DNA of 64,000 nucleotides, from NCBI RefSeq assembly GCF_030684315.1, contig NC_081358.1:87694458-87758457 (forward strand). Reading direction: 5' to 3'. This stretch comes from Stegostoma tigrinum (lineage: Eukaryota). A model generated the notes under the pieces. That model made no database searches, was not told the origin of the DNA, and saw only the letters and a program-made list of their open reading frames with translations. Made by a program: the position numbers and the translations under genes. Shown one piece after another: positions 16,651-57,477 of the stretch; the first letter of the stretch is position 1, and the number at the start of each line of letters is the position of its first letter.

Positions 16651-16872
16651 GGATATGAGGAACTGCAGATGCTGCAGAATCTGAGATAACAAGTTTAGAG
16701 CTGGATGAACACAGCAGGCCAAGCAGCATCAGAGGAGCAGGTTTTGGCTCTAGGCTCTTCTTCAGGATCTTCTTCAGACCCTTCTCTCTGAAGAAGGGTC
16801 TAGACCCGAAACATCAGGTTTCCTGCTCCTCTGCTGCTTGACCTGCTGTGTTCATCCAGCTCTACACCTGGA
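16651..16872. mobile_element. Palindromic (fold-back) PLE pLTR mini-element
   Basis: Two inverted pLTR tails joined at the hammerhead (plus core CTGAAGA..GGGTCTAGACCC GAAACATC at 16788-16815). TSD CAATAGACAG at 16641-16650 and 16873-16882. Confidence 0.88.
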
Positions 16873-18957
16873 CAATAGACAGTTAATGCCCTGTCAAGGA
16901 GTCACCTGCTACTGTTGATATTCAAACACCAGCAAGAGTGGGATTTTGCGTGCCAAGACCCCAAAAACCTGTTGCATTTGTTTGTGAACCCCTGAGTGGT
17001 AGGAGATGACCCTTATGCAAATTGACTCAAAAGCCTGTAAGGGAGACCCAAAATTGGGAGTATGGGCCCTGCACAGGGCCATCCCCTAGCCCTGTTGCAG
17101 AACCCCTTGTCCTGGGAATCCCATTCTGCCAATGCTCACCTTCATTCCTTGACTATCCTAATCTTCTGGTTACTGTGTAATTACCACATATTGGAGAAAT
17201 TCAGTATGTCTGGCACCACTCCTGACCTGGCACAGCCTGTGGTCTCTGGTAGGTCGACAGTTCTTAGTGGGTTGGGTTTGTTTTCTTTGTGACCTTGCAC
17301 CCAGTGAAGGCCCATCACAGACACGTAAATTACCCGAGAGGCAGTGAACTTGGCAAGCCTTCTCCAAAAGGAAACAGCAGGGGCACTTACTGACTCTGCA
17401 GCAGATGGGCAAAGCCTTGCCATCTCCATTAAAGAACATTTCAAATGTCAGATATTCCATAGAGAATAATACAATATTGAGGCAGCCCAGTACAAGGGAG
17501 AGAGAGAGGAATGTGTGATATGACTTCCCAGATCTTCAAATCATTCTTCTCGCGAACAAGAAGGTAAATATTACAGCTGGAAACATCTATTGACATTTAA
17601 TTAATCAGTAAGATGAATCTTTCCAAATGAAGTTAAACAGTGATGATTAATGTTTATCATTCAAAAATTTAATCTGACATAAACCAAATCACACAGGGAA
17701 CCGACAACATCAATTTAAACACTGTCAAATGTTTTGATAATCTTACATTTTATAGCACATCTTTTTTCTGCAGATACATTTGTCCATGTTGTGCCTGAAA
17801 TATGAGACCTGTATTAGCCTGGAGTTGGGAATTGGACAGGGCAGAGCCATGGCCATGTTCGAGACTTTAAATCCTGGGATTCATAAACAGTACATGGTCT
17901 GATAAGTGCCAAGAATCGACAGGAAGTGGTGGCATGTGAGTGCAGAATGTTGGCAGCAGGAAGTCATGAAAGGGAAGTCAAGGAAGTTTTGAGATAAAAA
18001 AAAATAGGAATACTCAAGATTGGAAATTAAGACAAAGTTCTGGTGCAGCTCAGCAGGTCTGGCAGCATTTTGTTGAGAGTAAAAGAGGGTTCATATCTGA
18101 GTTTAATATGATTTCTTCAGAGCGTTTCAAATCTTACTTCATTCAGCCTCTTCTAGTCCCAGCTGTTTTTCTCACTCATGAATTCACTGCAAAGTCCTCA
18201 ACTTTAAAAAAAAGTTTGACTCTGAGCCCAGTTTCCATTTTTAGTGAAGAGAGATCCATTTGTTTCATATGGCCCTCTTGCCATCTTTGCAGAACAGCAG
18301 AGCCTCCTGTTCAATTTGAACTCTAAACAGTGCATCACTCCACAGTTAGAAACCCATTCAGGCGACAACAGGCAATATTTCATATTAAAGTTTTTAATGT
18401 AACAGAGCATTTAATTTCAGAATGAAATAATGGCTTAATTAATCATAAGGTTATCTCTATGAATGAAGTTGGCAATAAAACATTGGAATTTTCAACCAGT
18501 TAGCTCTTTTCAATAAGTGGCTGTGATGTTTAGTTGCTTTTAATATTTATATTTAAAGCATGTGCCCACTCATGAATTGAAATCATGAAGGATATTGAAT
18601 TAGGCCTGGTGGGGTAATCTTCTCATTATTTTGCTGACAGCACCATAGAATGCACTTTTGATGTCATTTGCATGTATTGTATTGGAACATAGGTGCTAAT
18701 GAGTCATAGGTGCTAATGTTTACTGGCAAAACTTAAAAGAAGCACGAAAATTTGAACGCTGATCCCTGTAGAAGTGAGTTGAGCTTGTGTGCTCGCTCAG
18801 ATTGAGTGATTCAGTAGAATGCATAGATTTTAGCCCCTTCAAACTGAAACTCCTCAGTGAACCTAATTTCATCTAGGCATCTCAATGTCAATGCTGTACC
18901 TTCCTGAAATTTTGATTATTATTCAAAGACCTTGACACACCACCATTTATGTAATTC

Positions 18958-19060
18958 TAGTTCTGAAGAAAAGTCACTGGACCTGAAACATTAACTTGGC
19001 TTTGTCTCCACAAATGCTGCCTGGACCTGCTGAATTTCTCTAGCAATTTCTGTGTTTTTT
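18958..19060 (+). mobile_element. Family-B PLE pLTR beginning at a hammerhead motif
   Basis: agtt-CTGAAGA-aaagtcactggacct-GAAAC-ATT-aact; stem I can pair AGTT/AACT. Confidence 0.7.
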
Positions 19061-19270
19061 TTTCTGGTTATAATGGCTGTTCTGGACCCTGGTCTTGCAT
19101 TAGTTGCTAGAATTATTTGACATTTCATGAAATGAGCTTCATATGATGCTAGTAATCTCGTTTACATTTCAAACAGATTTAATGGATGGCCGATTGGGTG
19201 CAGTAAACTGGTAGATGCACAGGAGCAGGAAGCACAAGACTTCTGGCATAAAACCAGGAAGGACTGTGGA

Positions 19271-19363
19271 AGAGATAATGGGAACTGCTGATGTTGGAGA
19301 ATCCGAGATAACAAAGAGTGGAGCTGGATGAACACCGCAGGCCAAGCAGCATCTTAGGAGCAC
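19271..19363 (-). mobile_element. PLE pLTR tail fragment (no hammerhead)
   Basis: agagataatgggaactgc..ggagctggatgaacac.gcaggccaagcagcatcttaggagcac. Confidence 0.85.
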
Positions 19364-19455
19364 ATACGGCTGCCCTGAAACGATGATCAATTATTTGCAC
19401 ATTTCAAAATGGCATGGTGGCCAGAGCAATACAAACTAGTTTATTATTGGATGCC

Positions 19456-19675
19456 GAGATAGTAGTAACTGCAGATGCTAGAGAATCTGAGATAACAAGG
19501 TATAGAACTGGATGAACACAGCAGGCCAAGCAGCATAAGAGGAGCAGGAAGGCTGAAGTTTCGATTCTACATCCTTCATTTCTGAAGGAGGATCTAGGCC
19601 CGAAATGTCAGCATTCCAGCTTCTCTGATGCTGCTTGGCGTGCTGTGTTCATGCAGCTCTACACTTTGTTATCTC
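19456..19675. mobile_element. Palindromic PLE pLTR mini-element
   Basis: Inverted tails meet at decayed hammerheads (~19555-19610). TSD TTATTA(T/A)TGGATGCC at 19441-19455 and 19676-19690. Confidence 0.88.
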
Positions 19676-19779
19676 TTATTAATGGATGCCTTTCCTGTCA
19701 CCGTTTGTGTAAAGACTACACCTCCATTTGCCAGGCAGCCCACAGCTATGCTCCAATATACATTCAAAGACCTTGACAA

Positions 19780-20000: not shown

Positions 20001-20560
20001 CTACTGTCTGGCGAGCATTCTCTCCAATTGCAGTATCCTGGGTGACAAATTCAAACATCACAAGCAAAAGCACGCTCAGTGTTTTGCCGGCTCACTTTCA
20101 CATTTTAGAAAATAATTGAGGAGAAGAGAATCAAGTATCTTCAGGACCAGCTAGTGTGACGTAAAACCAACACTGACAGTAAATATTATACATGCAATCA
20201 ATTATGCAAATCAAGACTTGACCTAACGTCATATGAGACAGCATCAACTTAGAATGTAAACCCAGTTTGCTGAACACTCATCCACTGAAATGATGGGAGT
20301 GGTTGTATGACATTTGTCATGAGCTTTGTAAAAGAAAGTATTTTTAGGGGTGACACGAAAAAGAGAGAGAAGAAATTGAACATTGCCTGGGACTCATTAT
20401 TATCCATGTGTGCATTGAAATCCCTGCCAAATTTGTCACTTTTTATTTGAAGTTTGCAGTGGCTACAGGAAGCACCTTGCAAGTATAGATTGGGACATAA
20501 TACTTGTTTACTGATATTCCCCAGGCATGCATTCCCAATGTGGGAAACAGAAACCAGAAC

Positions 20561-20846
20561 CTCATCCCACCTCCTTGACCTGTCCGCCTTCCCTGGACTG
20601 ACCTATCCCCTCCCTACCTCCCCACCTATACTCTCTCCACCTATCTTCTTTTCTCTCCATCTTCGGTCTGCCTCCCCCTCTCTCCCTATTTATTCCAGAA
20701 CCCTCACCCCATCCCCCTCTCTGATGAAGGGTCTAGGCCCAAAACGTCAGCTTTTGTGCTCCTGAGATGCTGCTTGGCCTGCTGTGTTCATCCAGCCTCA
20801 CATTTTGTTGTCTTGGATTCTCCAGCATCTGCAGTTCCCATTATCT
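20561..20846 (+). mobile_element. Solo 5'-truncated young PLE pLTR
   Basis: Hammerhead variant at 20721-20748 (GAAA changed to AAAA). TSD CAGAAACCAGAAC at 20548-20560 and 20847-20859. Confidence 0.92.
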
Positions 20847-21399
20847 CAGAAACCAGAACTGCTTTAGTTTCACGATTTTGCAGTGAAGCAATAAGTTGGA
20901 TCAAAACATTAGATATGGAAAGAAATTGGAAGAAGCACTCTTACATACCAGTGCTTCCACAGTCCTTCTGATCATCCTCCCTGCTACCCTGAATCCCTCG
21001 CCCCTATGTCACTTGCTCCATTCCTCCTTCCAGCACTGAACATTTGCCTTCTTCAAATGGCCAAGCTTCCTGTAGAGGCTTTGCAGGCAGGGGCAGCTTC
21101 TGCACCATATATTGATGATATCCAGGGGTCAACTTTCAGCCAAGTGTCAGGTCTACCAATTGCGTGTGCACTGCTGACACACCACGGTTATATATCAATA
21201 TATTTGCTCCATATTTTGTTGCTGAATTAATCCCTTTGATACAAAGATTGGGAATAATTACAATGCAATAATATTATTCAGGGGGTTCTGGAAATGTCAT
21301 TACCTATTCATCGTTTATAAGATGGAGATCATTCAAATTTCAGTGAAAGGAAAGATTATGAACACGATGGGGAGTTACAGGGAGAGTGACCATGCCAGG

Positions 21400-21510: not shown

Positions 21511-22543
21511 CGAGAGTTGCTGAATGGGCTGCCCACTTGCAATCAACTGTCACAGTCCCACAAAATCAAGACTACCTTCAGCGTTGTTAATGTAGCATAA
21601 ATGTTCGAAAACTTAGGAGAAAACACACATCAAGATCCTACTGCTATAACTGTATTAATGTTCAAATCCATTCAAAAAGATGAAAGACTTTAAAAGGATT
21701 TTCATTAACTAGATTCTAAAGTGAATTTGAGGCATTAAATTGAGATGTGAACACATGCAATTAACAGAATCTAAAAGTATAAACTGAGTCACCCACCATT
21801 AGAATAATTCTTGTATGCGTTATACTTTGAATTTTTAACCTGTACAAATAAATTGCAACATTGCACATTCTGACAAGTATTGAGTCCTATATTAAAATGA
21901 TAATACTCAAATTTTGAACATGTCCTTTTAATTTTATTGTCAAATGTCCACATATGCCAATACTCCTACTCTGAATGAGAGTCTCCCACTTTAGACCTAC
22001 ACTTCCACCTCCCACACAGGTAATATTTCTCTTACTTTCTAAACACAGACTAAAATTCACAATATGATTATGTTGTTGCAATGATTCATGCTGGTAGCAT
22101 GACTCATAGAACCTGTTATCATTATAGTATTTATTGTGTTTTGGCTGTTGAACCCACAAAAGTGGCTTCATCATTATGTAACCATGAAAATGTGTTGAAT
22201 TATGATATAGGTCATTTTATAAACTTGCATCTTTAAAATTGATGCTTTTGCCACCAGATTAATGCCATTAATGGTGATTTAACGCACAGCAGAGTGGGCT
22301 ACATGCAGCCTGCTATCTTCCATTTTAACAATGTGGCTTTGGCCCTGTTGAATCTTGAAAAGTCAAATGGAATCCATACAATGTCACTAACAAACATCTT
22401 GCGATGCAGAAGATGTCTGGTTTTGATCCTCTGCAAAACTCATCAGCAATGCTATGAGCCATAGCAGATGTATACATGGAAAATTAAGCCTCTCTAATAG
22501 AAGAATGTGGGTCAGAACAGTGCATGGAATACAATAATTATAA

Positions 22544-22745
22544 TAGAAAATGCTGGCGAAAATCTTCCGGTCTGGCAGCATCTGTGGAGAGAGAAACAGA
22601 GTAAATGTTTCAAGTCTGATATGAATTTAATCAGTCTTGATATGTTAACTCTATTTCTCTCCCCACAGATGCTTTCAGACCTGCTGAGTTTCTCCAGAAT
22701 TTTCTGTTTTTATTTCAGATTTCCAGCATCTTCAATATTTTGCTT
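22544..22745. mobile_element. Palindromic family-B PLE pLTR mini-element (old)
   Basis: The arms ggtctggcagcatctgtggagagagaaacagagt and actctatttctctccccacagatgctttcagacc are reverse complements. The centre is a deleted hammerhead region and the right arm has an extra tail. Confidence 0.75.
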
Positions 22746-23249
22746 AAATTCCAAGGAAATCAATGCCTGATTCTTGCATGTGAAGGAGGTAAATACAGCG
22801 ATACAATTTGCTATTTTGGATGTATTTGTAATAATTAAATACCTGAATCTATAATGATAGTTGTCCTTTTGTTTATAGGCACAGGTCAGCAGCGCTACAA
22901 CTGGGATGATGTTATACCTCAACTCGGACACCCATTTTTAGTATCACATGGAGTGAGTTGAATTGATTAAAGACTTGTGATTCTGATGATATGGATCTCT
23001 GGCAAGAGCTAAGATGGATCAAACATTTGGCACTTTTGACTGAGGATGATTGATAAGGTTAGGCAATTCATCGTACCATTCCTTCCAATCATTCTTGAAA
23101 TGTCGATTGATATTCGTGATTAGCTGAAAAAGGAATTGAGAGCTTTGATCTGATTGATTGTGGAATCACTCTGTTTTGCCTATAACAAGCTGTTTCTGTT
23201 GTTTAGCACATATGTAGCTTCATCAGAGTAGCATTTTTAGTTATGCTTG

Positions 23250-24690: not shown

Positions 24691-25902
24691 AATAATTAGG
24701 CCTTTCCTTACCACACAAATTGGTGAAAGTGTGAGCTGAAAGTGCTGAAGGAAGAAGAAGAACATTATGACCTAAGTGGATAAGGCACCATAAAAGTAGT
24801 TCTTTAACCAATCAAATTTGTGGATTGGTAAATAAATACGATTAGGACCAAAAATATGGACGAATTGAAGGGGCTGAATTCAATGTCAAATCAAGTACAG
24901 AAAGATAGATGAAGAGAATGGAAATAAGGATTCGATAAGGAAAGCGACATAGAAAGGGAGAAAGGAATGAAATTTAGAAGTTTCTCAGAAAAATGAAGAC
25001 GTGAAAGTATGAGTTTCAATATTTGTTTTGGTTATTGTTTTGTAGAAGAGAATCTGACAGTTAGTCAATAACACTTACCATGTCATTAAATGGCATCCAT
25101 GCTTTGTAAATGATAAGGCTTAACTTTGTGTGTCACATTTAATGGGCAAAGACAGCAAGTTCATTATAAAGACGGACAGTAAGGACAGGGTGCAATTTTT
25201 GCAGAGTTAATAACAAAGCAGTACAATTTAGTAGCAACATCTATCTATTCACATTTAATTATGTATATATGTCTAGCTTGAAGTTGATGCAGTGTCCCGA
25301 TGAGTAATGGCAGTTTAACTTGTCATGTTCATAACGTCTGACTACTTTTTATCAATTTCAGCTTATTAAAGTGCACTTTCAATCAGCTTCAAATTATAGG
25401 ACAGATGACAAATGAAGCAATGAAATTTCCAGTTAAAACGAGGAAGATTACTTTGTGAAAAACAATGTCAATAAAATTTCAACAATCTTATTTACATTAA
25501 TTGAGTTCTATCAGTTGTTAGCAAAGCTAACCTCAAAGTTCTCAGTTTGCCGATGGTTAGAGTATGTATCGTCTTTTTTGGATGTCTGAATTCTAGGAAA
25601 TGTCAAATAGCCTTATTTATAGCTTAGATAACAGGTGTAGATGGATGACGAGTTAGCCATTCATAGAATCTGACAATATTGATGTAATGAAATGGAGCTA
25701 AGAATTTGGATAAAATTAGATCTTTGTATTATGCCATGAATTAAAGCAACAAAACACAGATTGGCATATATAATGTTTGAGAATGTTATTTATGTTAATG
25801 CTGAAGTGCACAAGAACTGAAATTTGGGGGAGACTTCTTGTATTGTTAAAGGTAACAAAATGATAAGATCATTGTTTATATCTAGGCTTGTTACATACTA
25901 TG

Positions 25903-26122
25903 AGACAACAAGGCGTAGAGCTGGATGAACACAGCAGGTCAAGCAGCATGAGAGAAGCAGGAAAGCTGATGTTTCGGGCCTTAAACCTTCATTCTGAAGA
26001 AGGGTCTAGGCCCAAAATGTCAGCTTTCCTGCTCCTCTGGTGTTGCATTGCCTGCTATGTTCATTCAGCTCTTTTACACCTTGTTATCTCAGATTACCCT
26101 GCGTACGCAGTTCCTACTATCT
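25903..26122. mobile_element. Palindromic PLE pLTR mini-element
   Basis: Inverted tails are fused at ...ccttcatt-ctgaagaagggtctaggccc. TSD CTTGTTACATA(C/T)T(A/G)TG at 25887-25902 and 26123-26138. Confidence 0.88.
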
Positions 26123-27557
26123 CTTGTTACATATTGTGTCCAGAGAAAGGCTTCCACAGTGTTGCAATCCCTCCAATACTGGAACCATCTGAACAAAGTT
26201 GCTAATTATTCCAATAAAGTATTCAAAAGAATAAAGAAATTTCAACAGTTGATATTTCATTGTCCAGAATTGACTCCTTATCACCGTTCACTTTAAGAAT
26301 TTGAATTAAAGAAACATTCAAAGATTGCTGTACTGACTATGAAATTAACTCTAGGCAGGATACATAAGAGCTGATCCAGTGACCTTTCAATTTAGAGCTG
26401 TGTTTGCTCCAGTTCATATTTTTGCCTTCATTATTGTTTAAAGTCTACCCATTCTTTTCCTTCTTATTAACAATTGACTTTATTCATGCCATTTACAAAT
26501 GTTTTTTCAGCTGTGGCTGTTCAGCTGAAATTAATGATAAAATCTTGAGCATACACATTACTGTATTGATATGTTACATCACTGATCTTTCCACTTCCAG
26601 TGCTTTTGAGCTATTCCTTTGTTCTTTCCTCCAAAACAAAAGGTCAATGCCAGCGGTAAAGAAAGTGGATGGCTCTCTACCTAGGACTTTGATCAGTTTT
26701 GTTCTTTCCAAGTGAAGTAATGACTTTTCTCTCCAAAAGGGTCAAGCACAAATATTGGTAGGTTTTAAAACATATGCTACCTCTGTATGCGTCGTTTCCT
26801 GGCATAGTGCACAGGTCAGAGCTGATGAACTGACCTCATAGAAGAATATTCATTTAGTCTGATTGGAATTTTCCAGTGGCCATGTAGCCAGGCAATATTT
26901 GGAAACTCTTGTTGTTCAGTGAAAGTGCTCCAGCCTTTGAGCCAGGAGGTCTGAGTTCAGATGCCACCAACTCTAGAGGTAAGTCAGAACTTGTCTGAAC
27001 AGGTTGATTAGGAAACTACAATTGCATGGAGAATCCTGTCCCCTCTTGGCAGCAGATCAAGGTCTATTGGACTAAGGAGGTTTTGAGACCTTACTTGCTT
27101 GCCTGCGGTGAAGGCTGCTCTGTGAAGAGGTACTCCCTTCATGATATTGCCCCGTCATTTCCGAGGGCAATTTTAGTTTTAAGATTTAAGTATTTGGATA
27201 GAAGGCGTTTCAATCCTGAGGAGCCTTTCAATCAATTAACTGATAGAGCACTCAATTGCTTACTCAGTGGTTGAGTAGCTCCTACTGGTCCTCAAGCTGC
27301 AAGAGTATGTCAGCTTTCCCCAGCTAGATGGTGGGCCTCGCATATGACCATTAATTGCCCAATTTGGAGACTATCATTTATCAAGCAACTGTTTCTCATA
27401 CAGAGCAGACTTCTGACTGCTATCTGACCCTGACGCAGGATCTGCACTTTCATGGGGAATATCCTACCATGAGGCTGTATTCTGGTGAGTAAAACTCAGA
27501 CCACAATGCTTTGTGGGCATTGTAGAAAGTATGAGTGTAAGAAGTATATTGCAAATT

Positions 27558-28790
27558 GATAACGAAGTGTGGAGCTGGATGAACACAGCAGGTCGAGCAG
27601 CATCTTAGGAGCACAAAAGCTGATGTTTTGGGCCTAGACTATTCATCAGAAAAGGGGGATGGGGAGAGGATTCTGAAATAAATAAGGAGAGAGGGGGAAG
27701 CGAACCGAAGATGGATAGAGGAGAAGATAGGTGGAGAGGAGAGTAAATGTAGGGAGGGGATAGGTCAGTCCAGGGAGGACGGACAGGTCAAGGGAGCGGG
27801 ATGAGGTTAATAGGTCGGAAATGGGGGCACAGCTTGAGGTCGGAGGAGTGGATAGGTGAGAGGAAGAACAGGTTAGGGAGGCGGGGACATCCTGGGCTGG
27901 TTTTGGGATGCAGTGGGGGGAGGGGAGATTTTGAAGCTTGTGAAATCCATATTGATACCATTGGGCTGCAGGGTACCCAAGTGGAATATGAGTTGCTGTT
28001 TCTGCAGCCTACGGGTGGCATCATTATGGCACTGCAGGAGGCCCAGGATGGACATGTCATCTAAAGAATGGGAGGGGGAGTGGAAATGCTTTGCGACTGG
28101 GAGGTGCAGTTGTTTATTGCGAACCGAGCATAGGTGTTCTGCAAAGTGGTCCCCAAGCCTCCGCTTGGTTTCCCCAGTGTAGAGGAAGCCACACCGGATT
28201 CAGCCAATGCAGTATACCACATTGACGGATGTGCAGGTGAACATCTGCTAGATGTGGGAAGTCATCTTGGGGCCTGGGATGGGGGTCAGGGAGGAGGTGT
28301 GGGTCAGCTGTAGCACTTCCTATTGTTGCAGGGGAAAGTGCTGGATGTGGTGGAGTTGGGAGGGGAGTGTGGAGCGGACAACGGAGTCACGGAGAGAGTG
28401 GTCTCTCCGGAAGGTAGACAAGGGTGGGGATGGAAAAATGTCTTTGTTGGTGGGGTGGGATTGTAGATGGCGGAAGAGTCGGAGGATGATGTGTTGTATC
28501 CGGAGGTTGGTGGGGTGGTATGTGAGGACAAGGGGGATTCTCTTAGGGTGGTTATTGTGGGGGTGGGGTTGAAGGATGAGTTGCGGGAAATGCTGGAGAC
28601 CCGCCCTTGATCGTGTCTCCATCTATCTTCTCCTCTATCCGTCTTTGGTCTGCCTCTCCCTCTCTCCCTATTTATTTCAGAACCCTCTCCCCATTCCCCT
28701 TTTCTGATGAAGGGTCTAGGCCTGGAACATCAGCTTTTGTGCTCCTAAGATGCTACTTGGCCTGCTGTGTTCATCCAGCACCACACTTTG
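27558..28790 (-). mobile_element. Neptune-type PLE (minus body ~27558-28597) with inverted plus-strand pLTR (~28598-28790)
   Basis: Frameshifted linker/GIY-YIG homology (ORFs 28320..28622 and 27873..28055). Decayed hammerheads at both ends; no clear TSD. Confidence 0.9.
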
Positions 28791-30779: not shown

Positions 30780-31345
30780 TAGATTTGTAGCTTGGGTTGT
30801 GGATGTTATGACTGGTTGGCTCACTGAGCTGGTTTGTTGATCTGTAGACGTTTCATTATCCTGCTTGGTAACATCATCAGAGCAGCTTCCAATGAAGTGC
30901 CTTTGCGTTTTCCTGCCTGTTATTTAAACTCTGGTGTCTGTTGAGCTGGATAACCTCATTTCCAGTTTTCCTTCATAATGGAGTGTATATGGGGTGGAAC
31001 TCTATGTCTTTGTTGATGATTTTCTTTGTGAAGTATCAGTCTTCTAGGAATTCTCTTGCTTGTCTCTGCTTTGTTTGTCCTGGGATCTTGGCGTGTCCCA
31101 AATGAACTGGTAGTTCTCCTTTTCCACGTGGATAGAGATGAATGAGTATTAATCATGTCAGTTTGTAGCCAATTGATGTTTGTGTACCCTTGTTGTTAAT
31201 CTCCTTTCTGTTTGTCCGATGTAATGTTGCTCACAGTCTCTGCTGGGAATTTTGTATATAACATTGGTCCTGTCTATAGTGGGTAGTGGGTCTTAATTTC
31301 GGGTGAGCAGTTGTCGTAGGGTTGATGTGGGTTTGTGTGCAATGT
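30780..31345 (-). mobile_element. Poseidon-type PLE 3' fragment (GIY-YIG + pLTR)
   Basis: The minus strand reads IAHKPTSTLRQLLTRN*DPLPTIDRTNVIYKIPSRDCEQHYIGQTERRLTTRVHKHQLAT and has no Cys knuckle. Confidence 0.85.
30847..30880 (-). ncRNA. Hammerhead motif of the Poseidon-type PLE
   Basis: The minus strand reads CTGATGA-tgttaccaagcaggataat-GAAAC-GTC. Confidence 0.7.
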
Positions 31346-32585
31346 GGTCAATTGTCGAAGAAACACCAACCAGTCCACATGAGAAGACATTTGAAACAAT
31401 AAACAGACAAGCAGAGATTCTGAGAGAGCGCCAACTGCTGTGTGTTTTCTCAAATGGGCAATACATTTAAATTTAGCCCTGATTTCTCTATTGGAGAATG
31501 AGGCAAATAGTTTTCTTGATTTTTTTTACCTTGCATTGGATTAGGGAAAACGGATTGAGTTGAGTGGGACTTGCAAGAAATGTATGGTTATGCTGATGAC
31601 AACCAAAGTATTTCCAAATCTGAATATGACTCTATCTAAACCAGAAATCTAAACCATTAATTCTAAGCCATGAATCTGAGACATAGCTCACTAATTTCAT
31701 CAAATAATTGCAGGATCAATCCACAAACACCAAGTATCAATGCTTAAGGAGTCCATAGAAAGGTGGCAGGGTTTTGCGAGACTGCTAGTGAGCATTAGAA
31801 TCCAAGAGACAGAGAGAGACATTCAATAAGAGCACACAAATGATCATCTTTGCCTGCGGGATCAGCCTCAAAACAGGGGTTGACTTAAAAAAACTAAACT
31901 GACACATAGGTAATTAGAATGGATATAGTTGAAACATTGGATAAGGGTGGGAGTCCACTACCTACATCCACGAGGTTAATGAAATACTAAGATGCCTACA
32001 AGAGCTCTTAATGATATGCGTAACATCCAAAGAGACACCTGACAGTGCTGCATTTCAGATTTGGAACAATACACATTCACAGGATTTCTAAGGCCTGATT
32101 GAGACAATACAGTTATTATGTTTCTTCATTGTCAAATAGAAATGAATGCCGAGAAGTGCTCTCAAAGAGTGTCAATGTGCTAATATTTTCTAATCCTCTG
32201 ACCAATAAGGAAGCCTCAGGCATGAGTATGGTTCTCATTTCCAATGCAAAAGAAAAACTTGAGAAAATGATCCTTTCAGGACTGCTAATTAATTGAAATG
32301 AATCTTACTTTTAATCTCTAATACTTGAGCAGAATCTTTCCACAAGCCAGATTTCTCGATCTTATATCATTTATGCAGCTTCCAATAATAACTTAGAACA
32401 TAAGAGCTCGGAGCAGGAGTGGACAATTCAGTCCTTAGGCCTTACTCAAGAATAAGTGTGAGACCAAGTTGATTATTTGATGTAAAGAGGGGCTATGATG
32501 TCAATAAATGGATATGGACAGTAGATTTTTGTATAGCCACTTGTTGATTAATGTTTTTGTTGAAAAAGAAATGTATTTGAACTGC

Positions 32586-32822
32586 GACAACCAAGTGTAA
32601 AGCTAGATGAACACAGCAGACCAAGCAGCATCCCAAGAGCACAAAAGCTGACGTTTCGGGCCTAGACCCTTCATCAGATTAGATGAAGGGTCTCTCTGAT
32701 GAAGGGTCTAGGCCTGAAACATCAGTTTTTGTGCTCCTGGGATGCTGCTTGGCCTGCTGTGTTCATCCACCTTCACACTTTGTTATCTTGGATTCTCCAG
32801 CATCTGCAGTTCCCATTATCTC
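32586..32822. mobile_element. Palindromic PLE pLTR mini-element with two divergent hammerheads
   Basis: Intact core at 32650-32677 (-) and a variant at 32696-32723 (+), 18 nt apart. Perfect TSD TGTATTTGAACTGC at 32572-32585 and 32823-32836. Confidence 0.92.
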
Positions 32823-33283
32823 TGTATTTGAACTGCATTGTGTAAGCCTAACTTATATTTTGGATGTGGGACAGATTATACAATGTTGACAGAATGACTG
32901 CAGAGGTAATGGATCTGTTGGTGGTCATCCTCCAAAATTCTTCAGATTCTAAAATGATTTCTACAGATTGGAAAGTAGGAAATATAATCCCTTCTTGTTA
33001 AGAAAAGAAGGAGAGAGTAAACGAGGAATTACGGTCCTGATAACCTGATGTCAATCATGGGGAAAATGCTAAAAACAATTCCAAAAATATGATAACTGGA
33101 CTCTTCAAAATTTGTGATGGGATTGGGAAGAGTCAACATAGACATGACAAGGAAATCAACCTTTTGAAAAACCTGTTAGAGTTTTATGTTAAAGGACATA
33201 ACTAGCAGAATAGATCAAGAGATCATCTGATCTCGGATCACATCACTAATCTTGTGTCATGATCCAAGATGTGATCACCAAAA

Positions 33284-34506: not shown

Positions 34507-34710
34507 AGAGAACAATAGCTTGCTTAGCTCAAATTAAACATGTGTAAACGGAGGGTACAAGAAGGTGTGTTAGAATTTCACAAGCGTTTCAGAAGGTTTC
34601 CAAATGGAGTCCCACACAGGTAAGCAAAACTAAAGCAAATGGGATTGGAGATAACTTCCTGGCACGCACTGAGAATTAGTTCATGGAAAAGAAACAGAGT
34701 AGGAACAAGT

Positions 34711-39800: not shown

Positions 39801-41214
39801 AAGGTATGGTTGAGTAAGAAGGGGGCATAGTCTAAAAATTAGGGCTAGACCATTTAGGAGAGATGTTAGGAAGCTCTTCTACATGCAAACAGCACTTGCT
39901 GATTGATCCTTTAAGTTTGAATCTGAGGTAGATAAACATTTCTTAAGCAAGGGTATTAAATGGATTATGGGCCAAAGGAAGTTTCATGGATCACAGTTGA
40001 TGTTGAGTAACCCTTGCTCAGAACCATTTTAACCACAATGAGCTTAAATCTCTGAATCAGTGGTCAATGATTCACCAGAAGGCTCTAATTTAAATGTTTT
40101 CAGACCCCTGGCACTATATCACTTGAAGTAGTGACTGTCATTGCTCAGTGGGTGACCGTTTCTTTAGACACACAAATGCATGGTGCTCTCCAGTGAGGAT
40201 TGTGTTATCACTTAGTTTGCATGTAAGACCTATGAGCTACTTTGCCTCTTTATGTTAAAATAAATCCAGTTGAATAATGGTGCTATTTAATTATCGTTGT
40301 TCACTGTAAAGATCCCAGTTTTACAGTTCCAAAGTGAAGCACAGCTGAGAATCAGTTTTCTGTTGGAACCTTTTGGAATGCCTTTAGTACATTCACTATC
40401 TCCAATGCTTCTTGCTGTTCTCAGTCTAAGTCTACTTACACCATGATGGGAAGGATGCTTTTGTGAACTCTTTAGCAGAAGAAAGGCTTGAGATTGATGG
40501 ATGGTAAATAGTTTTAAGACATACCACATTGTAGCAAGTTGCAGTACATCTGAGATGCATGCTTTTCTGTTGTGAGACTTTTCGGCTTAAACCAGGATGA
40601 ACTACTTTAACTATATTCTGTTAAGACTAAGTACAATCACTGCAGAGCTGTACACCCTCAGTGGAGCACATGCAGGATTCTGGGTAGCTCCTCCCAGGAA
40701 CAGTCTTTTATATCCTGCTGCTTGGAACTTATCTTGCGATGTCATTTACACCTTTCAGGTGCTAACTGCCTTATGCAACATCTCTCCCAAGCTTTCTTTC
40801 CAGTTCTTAATGAATTGTTTCAAACAATTAAAGTAGGTTTATCATACCCTGAATTGTTCAAGTCTCTGACTTTGTAAACGACCACTGACCTGGTTTGATT
40901 GCAAGTTTGCTGCTTGAGGACAAACCTTACAGGTACAGCTTGTTGCCATCCTGGAACTTTGGTGAATCTCTGATTTCTTGGATGTTCTTTACAGAGGATG
41001 GCCCTTGCTGCCAATGTCACTACTTAATATTTGTCTCCCTTGGAGGATCTTAAGTTCCCTTCAGTTGTGTCAGAGAAGATTATTGCCTTTCTGAAAGAAG
41101 TTATCTTTCACTCTTGGAGATTGTAACAAGGTATAGTCACACGTGATATTTCCGTTACTGCTCCTACACATTTGCAAAACATCGTAACTTCATCAGACTC
41201 AATTATAGACAGAA

Positions 41215-41882
41215 TGGCCAAGCAGCATCTCAGGAGCACAAAAGCTGACGTTTCGGGCCTAGACCCTTCATCAGAGAGGGGGATGGGGAGAGGGTTCTGG
41301 AATAAATAGGGAGAGACGGGGAGGAGGATGGAAGACGGAGAGAAAATAAGATAGTTGGAGAGGAGAGATAGCAATTTCTCGCCATCCCCCTCTCTGATGA
41401 AGGGTCTAGGACCGAAACGTCAGCTTTTGTGCTCCTGAGATGCTGCTTGGCCTGCTGTGTTCGTCCAGCTCCACACTTTGTTATCTTGGATTCTCCAGCA
41501 TCTGCAGTTCCCATTATCACTGATACAATTTTAACCTCACTGTGAAGCCTCTTCCAGGGATGCCTAACCTGAAGAAGTTACCCTCTTCCCTCCGAACCAA
41601 CCTCAGGGAATCTGTCTCCCACTGCAACTCTCTTGTAATCTCTTCAGCCTTGAAACTGCTATCTCTCGTCTCCACCTATCTTCTTTTCTCTCCATCTTTG
41701 GTTCGCCTCCCCGTCTCTCCCTATTTATTCCAGAACCCTCTCCCCATCCCCCTCTCTGATGAAGGGTCTAGGCCCGAAACGTCAGCTTTTGTGCTCCTGA
41801 GATGCTGCTTGGCCTGCTGTGTTCATCCAGCTCCACACTTTGTTATCTTGGATTCTCCAGCATCTGCAGTTCCCATTATCGC
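41215..41882. mobile_element. Composite PLE insertion: inverted pLTR + pLTR + putative ORF 5' end + second pLTR
   Basis: Hammerheads at 41247-41274 (-), 41394-41421 (+) and 41756-41783 (+). TSD TATAGACAGAA at 41204-41214 and 41883-41893. Confidence 0.92.
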
Positions 41883-42220
41883 TATAGACAGAAAGCTGAT
41901 TTAGCTGTTTTGGTACTGCTTCTTAACAGCTGAATCAACCAGAACAAGAACCTGCCTCTAACTTCTGGTGTTTGCAGTGTCAAGGAGATCAGATAATCAG
42001 ATTTTGATGATTTTACTTGTTATCTGGTGGACACTGAAGCGACCTTGCAGTGTAATATTTTGTATTATTTCTAGCTCTTTCAAGCTTTTAGGAGCAAGCT
42101 TAGTTTTGCTGTTGGTTTTGCTATCTTTTTATCTGTTGGTTGCCTCATTCTCAGAGACTAGTTCGCGCTGAGTGTTCTTAAACTGCCGAATATTTAAAAA
42201 TACATTTAATTTTCTGACTG

Positions 42221-44209
42221 TAAAATGTGAGGCTGGATGAACACAGCAGGCCCAGCAGCATCTCAGGAGCACAAAAGCTGACGTTTCGGGCCTAGACCCT
42301 TCATCAGAGAGGGGGATGGGGAGAGGGTTCTGGAATAAATAGGGAGAGAGGGGGAGGCGGACCGAAGATGGAGAGAAAAGAAGATAGGTGGAGAGAGTAT
42401 AGGTGGGGAGGTAGGGAGGGGATAGGTCAGTCCAGGGAAGACGGACAGGTCAAGGGGTGGGATGAGGTTAGTAGGTAGGAGATGGAGGTGCGGCTTGGGG
42501 TGGGAGGAAGGGATGGGTGAGAGGAAGAACAGGTTAGGGAGGCAGAGACAGGTTGGACTGGTTTTGGGATGCAGTGGGTGGAGGGGAAGAGCTGGGCTGA
42601 CTGTGCGGTGCAGTGGGGGGAGGGGACGAACTGGACTGGTTTTGGGATGCGGTGGGAGAAGGGGAGATTTTGAAGCTGGTGAAGTCCACATTGATACCAT
42701 TGGGCTGTAGGGTCCCCAGCGGTATATGAGTTGCTGTTCCTGCAACCTTCGGGTGGCATCATTGTGGCACTGCAGGAGGCCCATGATGGACATGTCATCT
42801 AGAGAATGGGAGGGGGAGTGGAAATGGTTTGCGGCTGGGAGGTGCAGTTGTTTATTGTGAACCGAGCGGAGGTGTTCTGCAAAGCGGTCCCCAAGCCTCC
42901 GCTTGGTTTCCCCAATGTAGAGGAAGCCACACCGGGTACAGTGGATGCAGTATACTGCATTGGCAGATGTGCAGGTGAACCTCTGCTTAATGTGGAATAT
43001 CATCTTGGGGCCTAGGATAGGGGCGAGGGAGGAGGTGTGGGGGCAATGTAGCATTTCCTGCGGTTGCAGGGGAAGGTGCCTGGTGTGGTGGGGTTGGAGG
43101 GCAGTGTGGAGCGAACAAGGGAGTCATGGAGAGAGTGGTCTCTCCGGAAAGCAGACAGGGGTGGGGATGGAAAAATGTCTTGGGTGGTGGGGTCGGATTG
43201 TAGATGGCGGAAGTGTCGGAAGATGATGAGTTGTATCTGGAGGTTGGTGGGGTGGTGTGTGAGAACGAGGGGGATCCTCTTTGGGCGGTTGTGGCGGGGG
43301 CGGGATGTGAGGGATGTGTTGCAGGAAATGCGGGAGACGTGGTCAAGGGTGTTCTCGATCACTGTGGGGGGAAAGTTGCGTTCCTTGAAGAACTTGGACA
43401 TCTGGGATGTTCGGGAGTGGAATGCCTCATCGTGGGAGCAGATGCGGCGGAGGCGGAGGAATTGGGAATGGGGGATGGAATTTTTGCAGGAGGGTGGGGA
43501 CCACTTTGCAGAACACCTCAGCTCGGTTCACAATAAACAACTGCACCTCCCAGTCGCAAACCATTTCCACTCCCCCTCCCATTCTTTAGATGACATGTCC
43601 ATCATGGGCCTCCTGCAGTGCCGCAATGATGCCACCCGTAGGTTGCAGGAACAGCAACTCATATTCCGCCTGGGAACCCTACAGCCTAATTGTATCAATG
43701 TGGACTTCACCAGCTTCAAAATCTCCCCTTCCCCCACCGCATCCCAAAACCAGCCCAGTTCGTCCCCTCCCCCCACTGCACCACACAGCCAGCCCAGCTC
43801 TTCCCCTCCACCCACTGTATCCCAAAACCAGTCCAACCTGTCTCTGCCTCCCTAACCTGTTCTTCCTCTCACACATCCCTTCCTCCCACCCCAAGCCACA
43901 CCTCCATCTCCTACCTACTAAACTCATCCCACCTCCTTGACCTGTCCGTCTTCCCTGGACTGACCTATCCCCTCCCTACCTCCCCACCTATACTCTCTCC
44001 ACCTATCTTCTTTTCTCTCCATCTTTGGTCCGCCTCCCCCTCTCTCCCTATTTATTCCAGAACCCTCACCCCATCCCCCTCTCTGATGAAGGGTTGAGGC
44101 CCGAAACGTCAGCTTTTGTGCTCCTGTGATTCTGCTGGGCCTGCTGTGTTCATCCAGCCTCACATTTTATTATCTTGGATTCTCCAGCATCTGCAGTTCC
44201 CATTATCAC
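42221..44209. mobile_element. Large inverted PLE insertion (minus arm ~42221-43494, plus arm ~43495-44209)
   Basis: Both arms encode the GIY-YIG C-terminus. Hammerheads at 42280-42307 (-) and 44083-44110 (+). TSD TAATTTTCTGACTG at 42207-42220 and 44210-44223. Confidence 0.95.
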
Positions 44210-50327: not shown

Positions 50328-50458
50328 AGAGATATTGGGAACTACAGATGCTAGAGAATCCAAGAATACAAAGTGTGGAGCTGGATGAACACAGCAGGTC
50401 AAGCAGCATCTTAGGAGCACAAGAGCTGGATGTTTGGGCCTAAACCCTTCATCAGAAA
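50328..50458 (-). mobile_element. Solo PLE pLTR truncated just upstream of the hammerhead
   Basis: TSD TTCATGTG(T/C)GAAG at 50315-50327 and 50461-50473. Confidence 0.85.
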
Positions 50459-51044
50459 ACTTCATGTGCGAAGTTGCCTTTTAAAAACATCTAAAATCAT
50501 TTTTCTTATCTTTGATCCATTTGTAGCTCGAGAATTTTTATGTGGGTGTCTAACTCAATATTCTATCCCACTGGATGAGGTTTTGATGTTACCTCTATAA
50601 AATGTTTCATATTCTAAGGCAGTTGTTTTTCAGCCAAACCTGAAAATTGTATGGGTGACACAATTACAAGGCCTCAGTGAATGTTCCATGTCTACCAAAA
50701 GCCCCGTTAGGCCTTTGAATGAACCAAAATACTACCAACTAAAATTAAATTATCTTCTGAAGATTGATGATTCCAATTAAATCTAGATATTAAACACAAC
50801 TCTGCCTTGATGGTCCCTGCCTGTTCTCTCCTCTGCCGTCACAATCGTGTGGAATGATTTCAAGTTTTAAACTATTAGTCACCTGCTGTGACTATGCACA
50901 AGATTCCACAGGGATTTGGTATTGGGATGCACCTGTGATTCTGGTAAGATTGGAGTAGTTCCCTACTGATACAATGACAATTGTATGGAATACCAACAAT
51001 TTTGGTGCCAACAATCCAGTGGCTCCAAACTATAAGAACAACCA

Positions 51045-51372
51045 AGGTCTTTTCCTTGAGGTCAGGGAGTCCAAAACTAGAGCGCATAAGGTTTAAGGGA
51101 AGAGGGGAAAGATTTAAAAAGGGATATAAGAGGCAACTTTTCACACATGGCGCATGTCTATAATGAGCTACCAGAGGAAGTGGTGGAGGCTAGTATAATT
51201 ACTACATTTAAAAGGCACCTGGATGGTTATGTGAATAGGAAGGGTTTAGAGGGATATGGGCCTAGATTATTTTACTATGGGGCTAGATTATTTTAGGATA
51301 TTTGGTCAGCATGGATAAGTTGGACTGAAGGGTCTGTTTCAATGCTATGAAGCGCTATGATTCTATGACTCT
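51045..51372 (+). mobile_element. CR1 3' fragment
   Basis: ggcaactttttcacaca..gagct.ccagaggaagtggtggaggct..ctatgattctatgactct. Confidence 0.85.
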
Positions 51373-53047: not shown

Positions 53048-53395
53048 AATCCTAGAATCCCGACAGTGTGGAAGCAGACTATTTGATCTATTCAGTCCAC
53101 ACCGACACTCTGAAGAGCATCCCACCCAGACCCATCCCTGCAGCACTGCATTTCTCCTGGCTAATCCACCCAGCCTGCACAGTCTTGGACACAATGAGCA
53201 ATTTAACATGGACAATCCACCCTAACATGCATACCTTTGGATTGTGGGAGGAAACTGTAGCACCCAGAGGAAAGCCCAGCAGACACAGGGAGAATGTGCA
53301 AATTCCACACAGATGGTCACCAAAGGTTGGAATGGAACCCAGGTCCCTGGTGCAGTGAGGCAGCAGGAACAACTATTGAGCCACTGAGCTGGCCA
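53048..53395 (-). mobile_element. HE1-type V-SINE
   Basis: Reverse-complement relative of 16003-16290. A partial copy also lies at ~52880-52980. Confidence 0.9.
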
Positions 53396-53879: not shown

Positions 53880-54375
53880 TGAAGAAGGATGTTCTTGCTC
53901 TCAAGGGAGTGCAGCGAAGGTTTACCAGGCAGATTCCAGGCAGGACTGACGTATGAGGAAAGATTGACTAGGTTGGGATTGTTTTCATTGGAGTTCAGAT
54001 GAATGACTGGGATCTCATTCAGGCTTATAAAATTCTAACAGGGCTAGACAGGGTAGGTGCAGGGGGCCATGTTCCCATTGGTGGGTGCGTACAGAACCAG
54101 GGGTCACAGTCTGAGGATTTGGGGTAGACCATTTAGGACGGAGATGAGAAGACATTTCTTCATGCAAACAGTAGTGAACCTTGGAATTCACTGCCACGGG
54201 AAGTAGTTGATGCCAAGTAGAGATCACACTTGGGGCAAATGGGATCAAATGTTTTGGGGAGAAAGTAGGATTAGGCTATTGATTTGGATGATCAGCCATT
54301 ATCATGAATAATGGCATAGAAGGCTCAAAGGCTGAACGGCCTTCTGTTGCTCCTATCTTCTATATTTTTATGATT
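53880..54375 (+). mobile_element. CR1 3' fragment
   Basis: gtgcagcgaaggtttaccagg..acgtatgaggaaagattga..gctcctatcttctat. Confidence 0.85.
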
Positions 54376-55404
54376 TCTGCAAATATTGCTCTGACCATTC
54401 CAAAGAAGCCAGAATAGTTTGTTTGTGTATTGTTCCTAGCAAAATTAACATTCATTCAACCACAGGCAGAAATTGTTGAATTAACCTTACTTATACCATC
54501 TCAGCAGAGAGGACAACAAAAAATGGAAAATAACAAAATGCTCAGATATTATAGTATGATACATCTCCTCTCCAGTTAAGAAAACAATTTATACATTAAC
54601 ATATAAACATGTGTATAACTTCCCAGAATATAATTTATGACTAAACCAACATAAGTAATGTCATAAAATTTTACAGGTTGGATTCCATACTTGCTTTTAT
54701 TTCATCACAACCCAAACACATATGACCGACATTACCAGAGTGATTTCTGTTATTGAAAATGTGTTCCCTTCACACTAGTATGCTTTTTCAAAAATATCAT
54801 AATTTGATAAGAAGTAATTTAAATAACAATGATTTTCGTATTCTTGCCTATATGCCTAAGATTAACCAATATGACTTGTTTCTTTTTTTGCTGGCCCAAG
54901 TCTTTCCACTGTCAGCAGCTAGATTCTGTTCTCTCAACAGCTTTATGTCAAATCTGAACTTTGACCAGTGATTCCACTGGTTGCTTAGGACTTTAACATT
55001 GATTGATTTGGTTAAATCAAAGATCCTACTCACTTTGCTCTGCTGATGGAGCCTATAATACTGGAAAATGCTCACTTTCTTTGCAACTAGCACTTTACTC
55101 TGACTTTTACCTTGGCCTATACAAGGTTCCCCTTGCCCTCAAGTCTCAAACAAAATTATCAAGGTGACACTGATGAAGTCCCTTTCTAAATCTTCACTTG
55201 TTATGTGGATGCTCCTAATCAGACACTACTCATTGATTTTCCACCATGATCTCCTGGCCGAACCAGCATTGACCTCACTAAGTCTCACAATTGATGTGTC
55301 ATTACTAATTTACACCTTGTTTTGCTTTGCTTTGATGTCAGCCTTCAGCAAACTAAACTTTGTCCTAGGAGTATGTTTGGGAACTAATTTGTAAGGGAAA
55401 CAAC

Positions 55405-55868
55405 CTCTTGTTCACCTATGAGAATAGATTGAAGACGTTGAGACAGTTCTCCTTGGAGACAAGGTGGACAGAAGATTTGATAAAGATTTGCAAAATCATG
55501 AGCACACTGGGTAGAGTATTAAGATGTTCTTTCCCATGAAAAGAAAGAACAAAGGGGCATAGGCTTAATGAGATGTGCAAGTGAAAGTAAAGTTGTGAGA
55601 ATAATGTGTGAAGTGCGAAAAATGTGAAAAAGAGAAAAATATGAAAAAAAATTCTCAGTGAGTGGTTAGGGTACGGAATGTGCTACCCAGAAATATGGTG
55701 GAGGTAGGTTCAATTCAGGCACTGAGGAGGGTATTGGATGATTACTTGGAGAGCAATGCTATAGGGATGTGGGAAATGGTAGGAGATTGGCATGAGGTAA
55801 TTAGGCTGGTGAGGGTACAGTGGGCTGAATGGCCTCCTACTGTACCATAACAGTTCTGTGATTCTGTT
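55405..55868 (+). mobile_element. Decayed CR1 3' fragment
   Basis: cacctatgaga.tagattgaaga..tgggctgaatggcctcct.ctgt.cc..ttctgtgattct. Confidence 0.75.
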
Positions 55869-57251
55869 GTAAACTGTAGGGCTATTCCATAAGAAGTCAG
55901 AAAGGTGACTGGCCTTTATTTTCAAGCCTAGCAAACACCTCTGGAAAAAAAAATCAGTTTACAATTTGTGCTTTTCATTTTGTAACAATATTTGATACAG
56001 GGTGAATCCATGCAATTATAACAAGCTTGGCTCAACAGAGAAGTGCACCACCTCTGGCAATCTAATGATGACAAACAAACTGTTCAAAACTTTGATATGC
56101 AGGCTCAATATTTAGCCATTTGACCAAATCAAGGTTTCTTTCCCATCTCCGCCTAGGGAATCCAAATGTACTCATTCCCATAGTTTCCTTGTGTTTGACA
56201 ATGGAGTGAAAAGAACTTTCTTTGAATTATTTCTTATTCTGAGATAGTTCCCAACTTCTCATCATCTTTTTGTGTCTCAATTGGTTTGGATACTAAAAAT
56301 AGAAATAGAAATAAAAATCTTGCCAATGCTTTCATACAGGCTGTGTGCTCTTGATAAAGTTCCCACAACCATTTATTTCTAAATCTTGTCAAAGTAATGA
56401 CCCTTAGCCCCTTAGGAGACATCCCTGATACATGCTCAGTTCATCTCTTTGTGTGAAATACGACTGCAATTTCTCATCATCTCACTCTTTAAGCCAGCCA
56501 TTCAAGACACAATTGAATGCTTTGTTCATGACACAAATGAGCCTTCGAAATTCTCCACCCCAGAAGGCTGTAGAAGCTAAGCCATTGAGTATGTTCCAAG
56601 TAGACATCAACAGATTTTTAAATAACAATAACTTAGAGGGATTTGAGGATTGTGTGGAGCAAAAGTCATTGAAGTGACTTTGCTCAGTCATGATCATATT
56701 GAACGTTGAGGTAACCACATCAGGCTTCTTGTGTTCTTATGGAGCATGACATCCGTCTGAGTTCCTTCATTGATTTACCTGACAAGCATTGACTTACACT
56801 GTTTTATTGTAAAGTAATTCACACGTAACTTAGTGATTAGAAATGAAGTAGGCCATGTGGGAAACCTCGACAGAACACCTTCACCGACATGATCTGACGT
56901 TTTATTATATTTACTATCACATTTGTGAGCCATTAAAATCCACATCAATCGCTGAAACTATTCTGGCACTTGGGAATGTACTCTCATCTTTGAATGAAAT
57001 ATGATTGTTAGGGTTTAGTGGTCAGTTAAACAAAATGAACTTCATACTCTAAAGCTTTTTTGGAGCTTAATAACACCAGCCTGTGAGCAAGTTTACTGAT
57101 TTTATTAAAGTGCATGAAGCATATGGACTGGCTTCTCCTATTATCCTCCATTATGTTTTATTACACATACCTAACATGTACAGTGGAGGTATTGATAAAA
57201 CCAATTGTTTCTTGAGATCATTGTGGGTCAAAACAACATCACTAGTTCATA

Positions 57252-57477
57252 GATAACAAGGTGTAGAGCTGGATGAACACAGCAGGCCAAGCAGCATCAG
57301 AGGAGCAGGAAGGCTGATGTTTCGGGCTAGATCATTCTTCAGAAAATTTTCAAAAAGGGATCTAGGCCCAAAACGTCAGCTTTCCTGCTCCTCTGATGCT
57401 GCTTGGCCTGCTGTGTTCATTCAGTTCTACACCTTGTTTTCTCAGATTCTCCAGCATCAGCAGTTCTTACTATCTCT
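57252..57477. mobile_element. Palindromic PLE pLTR mini-element
   Basis: Inverted tails meet at decayed hammerheads (~57317-57378). TSD ATCAC(T/C)AGTTCATA at 57238-57251 and 57478-57491. Confidence 0.88.

Follow-up and report, generated by a model that had tools for sequence, protein, structure and literature searches.

Short palindromic insertions of a Penelope-like element in Stegostoma tigrinum and a probable boundary at the hammerhead ribozyme

Endonuclease-bearing (EN+) Penelope-like elements (PLEs) such as Penelope, Neptune, and Naiad are described as leaving inverted, 5'-truncated copies, a 30-40 bp tail on one side, and palindromes at junctions (PMC8557442, PMC3846280), and how the tandem and inverted structures of PLEs originate has been called undefined (PMC8557442). 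We analyzed a 64,000-nt stretch of the Stegostoma tigrinum genome (RefSeq assembly GCF_030684315.1, contig NC_081358.1, positions 87,694,458 to 87,758,457 of the forward strand; hereafter the window, to which all counts below apply) that contains five short palindromic insertions of a PLE, here termed family A. Like the described EN+ insertions, these are head-to-head with a tail at one end; in rotifer examples, the target site duplications (TSDs) are 8-10 bp long and palindromes occur at the inverted junction (PMC3846280). The described examples stand beside long copies or copies that bear an open reading frame (ORF), whereas here the whole insertion consists of two arms of about 100 bp that end at one landmark, the CTGANGA box of a hammerhead ribozyme in the pseudo long terminal repeat (pLTR). 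We number positions from the C of this box as +1; the predicted ribozyme cut follows +28. An initial annotation of the window had reported the five family-A inverted repeats and one analogue from another family (family B), and all six are present.

In Schistosoma, pairs of minimal hammerheads on opposite strands, 100-700 bp from each other, were noted in 2014 (PMC4209133). These too come from truncated PLEs and are probably the same kind of inverted product, but they were described without junction mapping, whereas our boxes lie 0-25 bp apart or are broken at the junction. Poseidon_Ac (PAc), a PLE of the green anole, cuts and extends both target strands in vitro, is predicted to act as a dimer, has two internal start sites for reverse transcription, by which the tail is defined, and does not need hammerhead cleavage (PMC11167929). 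Family A resembles PAc in that reverse transcriptase (RT) apparently starts at two internal sites, about 35 nt from each other and downstream of the hammerhead, in that both target strands appear to be extended, and in its AT-rich targets. PAc is of the Poseidon clade, with an ATG located at stem II, whereas family A has a Neptune-like linker and an ATG at +167; we found no account of a 5' boundary or of joined head-to-head products for PAc (PMC11167929). Non-LTR retrozymes are likewise short, noncoding, hammerhead-bearing, and derived from PLE pLTRs (bioRxiv 10.64898/2026.07.22.740005), but they are described as head-to-tail with an intact hammerhead in each unit (also PMC6765202), whereas the palindromes are head-to-head and their cores are mostly broken.

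The palindromes are similar to the miniature inverted-repeat transposable elements (MITEs) of DNA transposons in size and inverted symmetry, and they differ in their variable TSDs, unequal ends, and RT origin. In LINE-1 twin priming, both target strands prime cDNA, which produces an inverted 5' segment, a microhomology joint, and a TSD; there the segments come from different parts of the RNA, whereas both palindrome arms copy the same ~90 nt. A full-text literature search, with subscription papers, supplements, Repbase, and Dfam outside its reach, found no minimal palindromes or 5' ends clustering at a hammerhead boundary. The architecture itself is known already, so the gain is mechanistic: the palindromes are PLE insertions that are probably two-ended and cut down to a minimum, and the 5' edge of the hammerhead probably marks a fixed boundary for them.

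Structure of the palindromes and identity of family A

The initial annotation described the arms as two inverted pLTR tails. They proved to be two 5'-truncated 3' ends: in all five palindromes, one arm stops at +85 to +98 (near +90), and the other, which alone carries a tail of about 35 bp, reaches near +128. In the palindrome at 16651-16872 (TSD 16637-16650 and 16869-16882, 14 bp with one mismatch, 10 bp exact), the tailed left arm begins at +1 and lacks about +24 to +36 internally, the untailed right arm starts at about -2, and the box/stem II segment is repeated twice more at the junction, in copies of 8-12 nt. At 19456-19675 (TSD 19441-19455 and 19676-19690, 15 bp with one mismatch), the tailed left arm is broken within the box at about +5, and the right arm starts at about -5. 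The palindrome at 25903-26122 (TSD 25887-25897 and 26123-26133, 11 bp exact, or 16 bp with two mismatches by eye) has an untailed left arm broken at about +5 and a tailed right arm from about -4. At 32586-32822 (TSD 32572-32585 and 32823-32836, 14 bp exact), an untailed left arm from -1 meets a tailed right arm from -4, with an 11-nt templated copy of +4 to +14 at the junction. Both arms of the palindrome at 57252-57477 (TSD 57238-57251 and 57478-57491, 14 bp with one mismatch) start at -5 and are joined through a 2-nt self-complementary overlap that gives a perfect palindromic center; its right arm is tailed. A tree of the arms separates 32586, which belongs to a young subfamily, from the other four, which belong to an old one (support 100/99).

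Junction positions were read by hand and carry an uncertainty of 1-3 nt in either direction from microhomology. The joints comprise a 2-nt overlap (57252), 1-nt overlaps (19456 and 25903), and short templated duplications of up to about 20 nt (16651 and 32586), and they fit end joining. The claim that each family-A element has its own TSD was borne out: the best repeats are 14, 15, 11, 14, and 14 bp with zero or one mismatch, and the same finder equaled the palindrome score in 1 of 150 random intervals. The TSDs are 65% AT, compared with 59% for the window, and their lengths do not differ from those of the other family-A copies (P = 0.21). As transcripts, the palindromes are predicted to form hairpins of 80-101 pairs (-119 to -172 kcal/mol), in agreement with the ~100-bp hairpin proposed at first; the fold of 32586-32822 (-152.7 kcal/mol, z = -19.8) was equaled by none of 200 shuffles.

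The suggestion that these elements carry a ribozyme on each strand did not survive. One arm is broken inside the box in both 19456 and 25903, the family-B arms have no box, and an intact box, GAAA, and GTC triplet are found today in 1 of the 10 family-A palindrome arms. This sole fully intact core of a predicted minimal type I hammerhead (32650-32677, minus strand) has the box, a 4-bp stem II, GAAA, a palindromic stem III, the GTC cut triplet, and a 2-bp stem I. A descriptor scan (CUGANGA box, stem II, GAAA, palindromic stem III, and NUH site) gave 13 matches to the minimal type I motif in the window, and no Rfam family reached its gathering score anywhere in the window.

Family A comprises 27 segments at 17 loci in a profile search of the window, or 26 arms after subtraction of one internal tandem unit. 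The 17 loci are nine head-to-head insertions (the five short palindromes and four long ones) and eight single copies. The long copies encode a C-x4-C-xx-C linker and a GIY-YIG domain, and the family assignment is based on a long single copy at 34706-35934 (minus strand) with an open C-terminal ORF that contains both. PF01541 (GIY-YIG) matched 2 of 10 ORFs (E = 6e-4 and 2.5e-3), with scores that fall short of the gathering cutoff. The family-A C-terminal fragment is 93% identical to a Stegostoma protein (P0001) and 85% identical to a Rhincodon protein, and its homologs include GIY-YIG-named and RT-named proteins. P0001 reaches RT motifs (YIDD), and more distant matches carry PF00078; the family-A copies in the window are 5'-truncated and lack the RT core. 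Family A also shows the other features of a PLE: a pLTR, in that the element's 5' end is repeated at its 3' end, an optional tail, inverted 5'-truncated copies, and variable TSDs. The CX2-5CxxC linker motif before GIY-YIG is described as a Neptune trait absent in Penelope and Poseidon, and Nematis likewise has a linker motif of this type (PMC8557442). Judged by this motif, and not by an RT tree, family A can be classed as a Neptune-like EN+ PLE.

Beyond the tail, the family-A insertion at 41216-41883 encodes a peptide that matches the N terminus of a Stegostoma protein, itself similar to the N termini of two full-length RT-bearing proteins (E = 3e-10 and 2e-8); the ORF begins with the ATG at +167 (position 41560). 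The sequence beyond +128 is thus the element's own 5' untranslated region (UTR) and ORF start, which places the hammerhead in the 5' UTR and makes both 3' ends internal to the RNA.

The palindromes had been presented as a class of their own. They are instead the shortest members of a series of head-to-head insertions, four longer examples of which lie in the window. At 11862-13401 (TSD 11 bp), a tailed arm starts at -271 and an untailed arm at -1122. Both arms at 27558-28790 (starts -1031 and -87) are untailed, and no TSD was found there. The insertion at 41216-41883 (TSD 11 bp) is inverted and partly tandem, with arms from -105 and -17, and the insertion at 42221-44209 (TSD 14 bp exact), which encodes the PLE C terminus, has an untailed arm from -1188 and a tailed arm from -593. 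The combination of one +85 to +98 arm with one tailed +128 arm recurs in two of these four, and their unequal arms indicate that each arm is an independent cDNA. Outside the palindromes, TSDs were found at 3/4 long head-to-head insertions and 6/8 single copies (two of these weak). The single copies use either 3' end (five tailed and three untailed).

Position of the stop at the hammerhead box

All 10 palindrome arms and a tailed single copy at 50328-50460 (minus strand; 5' end at -5, own TSD) end within -5 to +6. This cluster holds 11 of 26 arms at 6 of 17 loci and is tighter than the 0-25 nt given in the initial annotation. No other family-A arm starts between +7 and +30, and one starts between -6 and -86. 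A locus-level scan gave P = 0.004 for the cluster under a local uniform null and P = 0.001 under a fitted geometric null. Its edge is sharp upstream, with no cluster arm past -5, and trails downstream. The length copied up to the stop is 87-99 nt in untailed arms and 115-133 nt in tailed arms; because arms begun 35 nt apart end together, position and not length sets the stop. Among the nine inverted loci, both arms are short in five, both are long in four, and no pair is mixed (P = 0.003, pooled). The hard edge at -5 and the pairing of short arms only with short ones together suggest a template that ends there, as would result from priming in the 5' pLTR and run-off.

Two other pLTR families are consistent with such a template end. 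A tailed single copy of a third family, family C (59920-60039, plus strand; 11-bp exact TSD), starts about 9 nt upstream of its own box, and its TSD places its end near -9; the segment at 59964 was at one point taken for a family-A copy and was reassigned to this family on its own box and TSD. In seven family-B and family-C arms with a recognizable box, no common sequence extends upstream of about -5 (pairwise identity 0.30 at -6 to -25).

We propose that each palindrome is a separate two-ended insertion of a Neptune-like PLE whose cDNAs were halted at a fixed boundary. The PLE protein would nick both target strands 11-15 bp apart, as the TSDs suggest, and each 3'-OH would prime RT at one of two internal sites in the pLTR RNA, about +90 and about +128, to which the 3' ends point and which have a counterpart shown in vitro for the anole PLE. 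Both cDNAs would extend toward the RNA 5' end, and microhomology or templated end joining would then connect their 3' ends, so that the product is a head-to-head repeat in which one arm is tailed. Priming in the 3' pLTR, with the ORF lying upstream, would account for the long arms. In the ~220-bp palindromes, both cDNAs would halt at a fixed boundary in the template, which would lie 4-5 nt upstream of the CTGANGA box and is probably the RNA 5' end, met by run-off after priming in the 5' pLTR. PLE start sites are described as lying in the pLTR (PMC2377424, PMC8557442). The ribozyme would be a landmark and passenger, not a cause, and in transcripts the antisense arm would pair with it and block its folding.

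We consider two-ended recurrent insertion likely, and we hold it probable that the 5' edge of the hammerhead marks a fixed boundary of the template; the explanation as a whole we regard as evenly poised. Provided that a fixed boundary exists, we lean slightly toward the RNA 5' end as that boundary. The most specific version, in which a PLE dimer primes from both strands at two 5'-pLTR sites and runs off the RNA end 4-5 nt before the hammerhead, so that a palindrome is the fossil of a two-sided 5' rapid amplification of cDNA ends (RACE) product, is put forward tentatively.

Several observations weigh against this explanation. The sample is small, with 17 family-A loci in one window. Under a null in which starts fall off steeply (mean 30-50 nt), the free scan loses significance (P = 0.40-0.85), although a scan of the fixed interval keeps it (P = 0.006-0.007). 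The concordance of short and long arms has P = 0.11 without the old subfamily, whose four inverted loci are all short, and the middle copy at 41216 begins at -17 rather than -5. A palindrome arm has its partner as nearest neighbor in just 5 of 10 cases. Identity among family-B and family-C arms at -1 to -4 is 0.37, barely over background, and the window holds no long family-B copy, so that the family-B ends are bounded by homology loss alone. Finally, long family-A copies (for example, 42221-43495, minus strand) combine a 78% pyrimidine tract with a heptamer at -166 that matches a branch-point motif perfectly and with a YAG at -22, the only one from -250 to the box, that resembles a 3' splice site; no GT(A/G)AG donor was found within 420 nt. 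These signals resemble the Penelope intron that ends at the hammerhead, and they hint that some transcripts begin farther upstream. The start site of D. virilis Penelope is described as lying 46 nt upstream of a 75-nt intron ending at the hammerhead, that is, about 120 nt upstream in unspliced RNA (PMC2377424, PMC4209133).

Two further observations concern this region. A scan with an initiator consensus gave one TCT-type match at -5 among seven within 100 nt upstream, which is uninformative. The 5' end of a single copy at 20558-20847 (plus strand) falls at the base adjoining the branch-point-like A, as if RT had stopped on a lariat; this is one case, noticed post hoc.

Alternative explanations

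The alternative that survives best, though we think it improbable, keeps two-ended insertion and has RT, while copying a long RNA, stall or dissociate at the hammerhead's 5' edge, owing to the ribozyme, a bound protein, or a weak hybrid on the pyrimidine tract. The landmark is common to families A, B, and C, the 30 nt upstream of the family-A box are 80% pyrimidine, and the short sequences copied repeatedly at the junctions of 16651 and 32586 could mean that RT restarted at this point. Polymerase theta makes templated insertions at end-joined junctions, and activity of this type would explain the junction duplications equally well. The stop lies 23-33 nt upstream of the predicted cut site, past the whole ribozyme from the side of RT, which would already have unwound it; on the same ground we rejected ribozyme cleavage as the cause of the junctions, which it would explain poorly. 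Stem I has only 2 bp, the hammerhead region folds no better than shuffled sequence (z = 0.52), and no G-quadruplex motif was found on the cDNA strand. The sharp upstream edge and downstream trailing are the reverse of what a structural block would be expected to give. Independent stalling on each pass predicts mixed short and long pairs, and 0/9 were seen (P = 0.003 pooled, 0.11 stratified). In vitro, catalytic hammerhead mutants are described as leaving PAc insertion size unchanged (PMC11167929). The programmed RT stall at the ribozyme offered in the initial annotation is thus not upheld.

Less probable still is a preformed palindromic or short nonautonomous master that is transcribed and amplified in trans by PLE protein, the second mechanism offered at first. 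Nonautonomous PLE derivatives are known (PMC8557442; bioRxiv 10.64898/2026.07.22.740005), and eight of the nine old-subfamily arms in the tree come from palindromes. The annotation's statement that every central junction differs holds for four junction types among the five palindromes and fails for 19456 and 25903, which differ by one T. We had considered this near-shared junction as proof of an amplifying master and dropped it: a near-identical pair is expected with P = 0.31, the tails of the two elements are on opposite arms, and they differ at +11. The tree (77 columns; 1611, 19272, 59964, and 41216 left were omitted as partial or of another family) does not group arms by tailed or untailed type across loci, and its old clade is star-like, with low power within the old subfamily. 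Mean arm distances were 0.127 within a locus, 0.149 between tailed arms, 0.117 between untailed arms, and 0.135 across loci. The footprint of A-to-I editing, for which a check had been proposed, is absent from the old arms: there is no A-to-G excess (A>G at 3/86 A sites versus T>C at 3/171 T sites). With two subfamilies, family B, and four junction types, recurrent formation is favored over amplification, in keeping with one reading in the initial annotation, and the amplifying family finds no positive support. A short nonpalindromic master starting at -5 is indistinguishable from the two-ended insertion that we prefer.

In fold-back self-priming, a cDNA or antisense template would fold on itself at the box and be extended back, as proposed for rotifer PLEs, where palindromes at inverted junctions are read as self-priming on an antisense template (PMC3846280). 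The perfect palindromic center of 57252 fits this mechanism. We nevertheless find it very improbable, as the long inverted copies have very unequal arms (-271/-1122 and -1188/-593), both outer ends match RT start sites that single copies also use, and the flanks are direct TSDs rather than inverted duplications.

We give equally little credence to the idea that there is no special site, the palindromes being the short end of ordinary 5' truncation and their clustering a product of chance and detection bias. For the PLEs of Chlamys, whose group is described as having no canonical hammerheads, the median length of de novo insertions is 128 bp (PMC9977147, PMC8557442), and the scan loses significance under steep fall-off. 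Set against this are the 11 arms in -5 to +6, compared with none in +7 to +30 and one in -6 to -86, and the common end of arms of different start and length. DNA-transposon MITEs with captured PLE sequence are the least credible reading, with size and inverted symmetry and nothing else in their favor: the TSDs, like those of other family-A copies, vary in length (11 to 15 bp in the palindromes) instead of being fixed, the termini are unequal by about 35 bp with a one-sided tail, and the arms are continuous with the GIY-YIG ORF and run on into a GIY-YIG/RT element in longer copies, which supports the initial view that these elements look like MITEs and are retrotransposed.

Other copies in the window and significance of the palindromes

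The family-B palindrome (22540-22748) has its arms joined inside stem II (about +10 to +16) and a tail on the right arm only. As an analogue of the family-A elements, it stands as a palindrome; neither arm has the CTGANGA box, and no convincing TSD was found (best score 4, within the null of random intervals). At 7530-7886, two family-B arms lie head-to-head about 120 bp apart, both from near the box and one tailed; they may be two insertions, as they apparently belong to different subfamilies and share no joint TSD. Within 30790-31200 (minus strand), a hammerhead of a fourth type lies at 30880 and has a longer stem II; at least 300 nt preceding it resemble another PLE 3' end, and this copy shows no truncation at the box.

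The middle copy of the 41216 insertion starts at -17, passes through the tail, 5' UTR, and ORF start, and from there continues directly at -102 of a second pLTR. A retrozyme-like, 362-nt head-to-tail unit thereby arises at 41377-41883 (plus strand), in which the pLTR, 5' UTR, and about 33 ORF codons are fused to -102 of the second pLTR. The inverted arm copies the same fusion point, and the deleted template therefore predates the insertion. Chondrichthyan retrozymes have a mean length of 363 bp (bioRxiv 10.64898/2026.07.22.740005), and the agreement is possibly a coincidence. Two single copies, at 1611-1706 (plus strand) and 19272-19364 (minus strand), have their starts a few nucleotides past the predicted cut, at +31 and +35, and were possibly copied from cleaved RNA; they have no TSD, and their ends are uncertain. 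There may be more truncation hotspots, as unrelated copies (43489 and 61760) start at -593 and -597 and three copies start at -1122, -1134, and -1188.

Outside the PLEs, an exact tandem duplication of 179 bp at 33976-34333 is either recent or an assembly artifact. Three repeats occur in two copies each (16012-16177 and 53209-53384; 13806-14128 and 51044-51369; 39820-39892 and 54099-54171), and they appear to resemble a tRNA-derived short interspersed element (SINE) and the 3' ends of CR1/L2-type long interspersed elements (LINEs). ARAGORN found no genes in the window. In a search for host exons, no Pfam match was obtained in 94 of 188 ORFs of at least 70 aa, picked outside the main PLE copies, which is a weak test for short exons.

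If the fixed boundary and the rule of one short and one tailed arm hold genome-wide, they would link two-site, two-strand priming in vitro to genomic products and would offer an easy way to check two-ended insertion. A shark repeat library could list these palindromes as MITEs by mistake, and their hairpins, if transcribed, could feed small interfering RNA (siRNA) or ADAR pathways. Should run-off at the RNA 5' end be true, the density of five per 64 kb, which comes from one window and is no genome estimate, would mean that sharks could hold a very large set of these insertions. The palindromes would then map the RNA ends of extinct PLE families and explain both inverted pLTRs and the one-sided tail, and they would form scattered hairpins of about 90 bp, perfect at birth, that could make double-stranded RNA against the parent element's 5' UTR and ribozyme.

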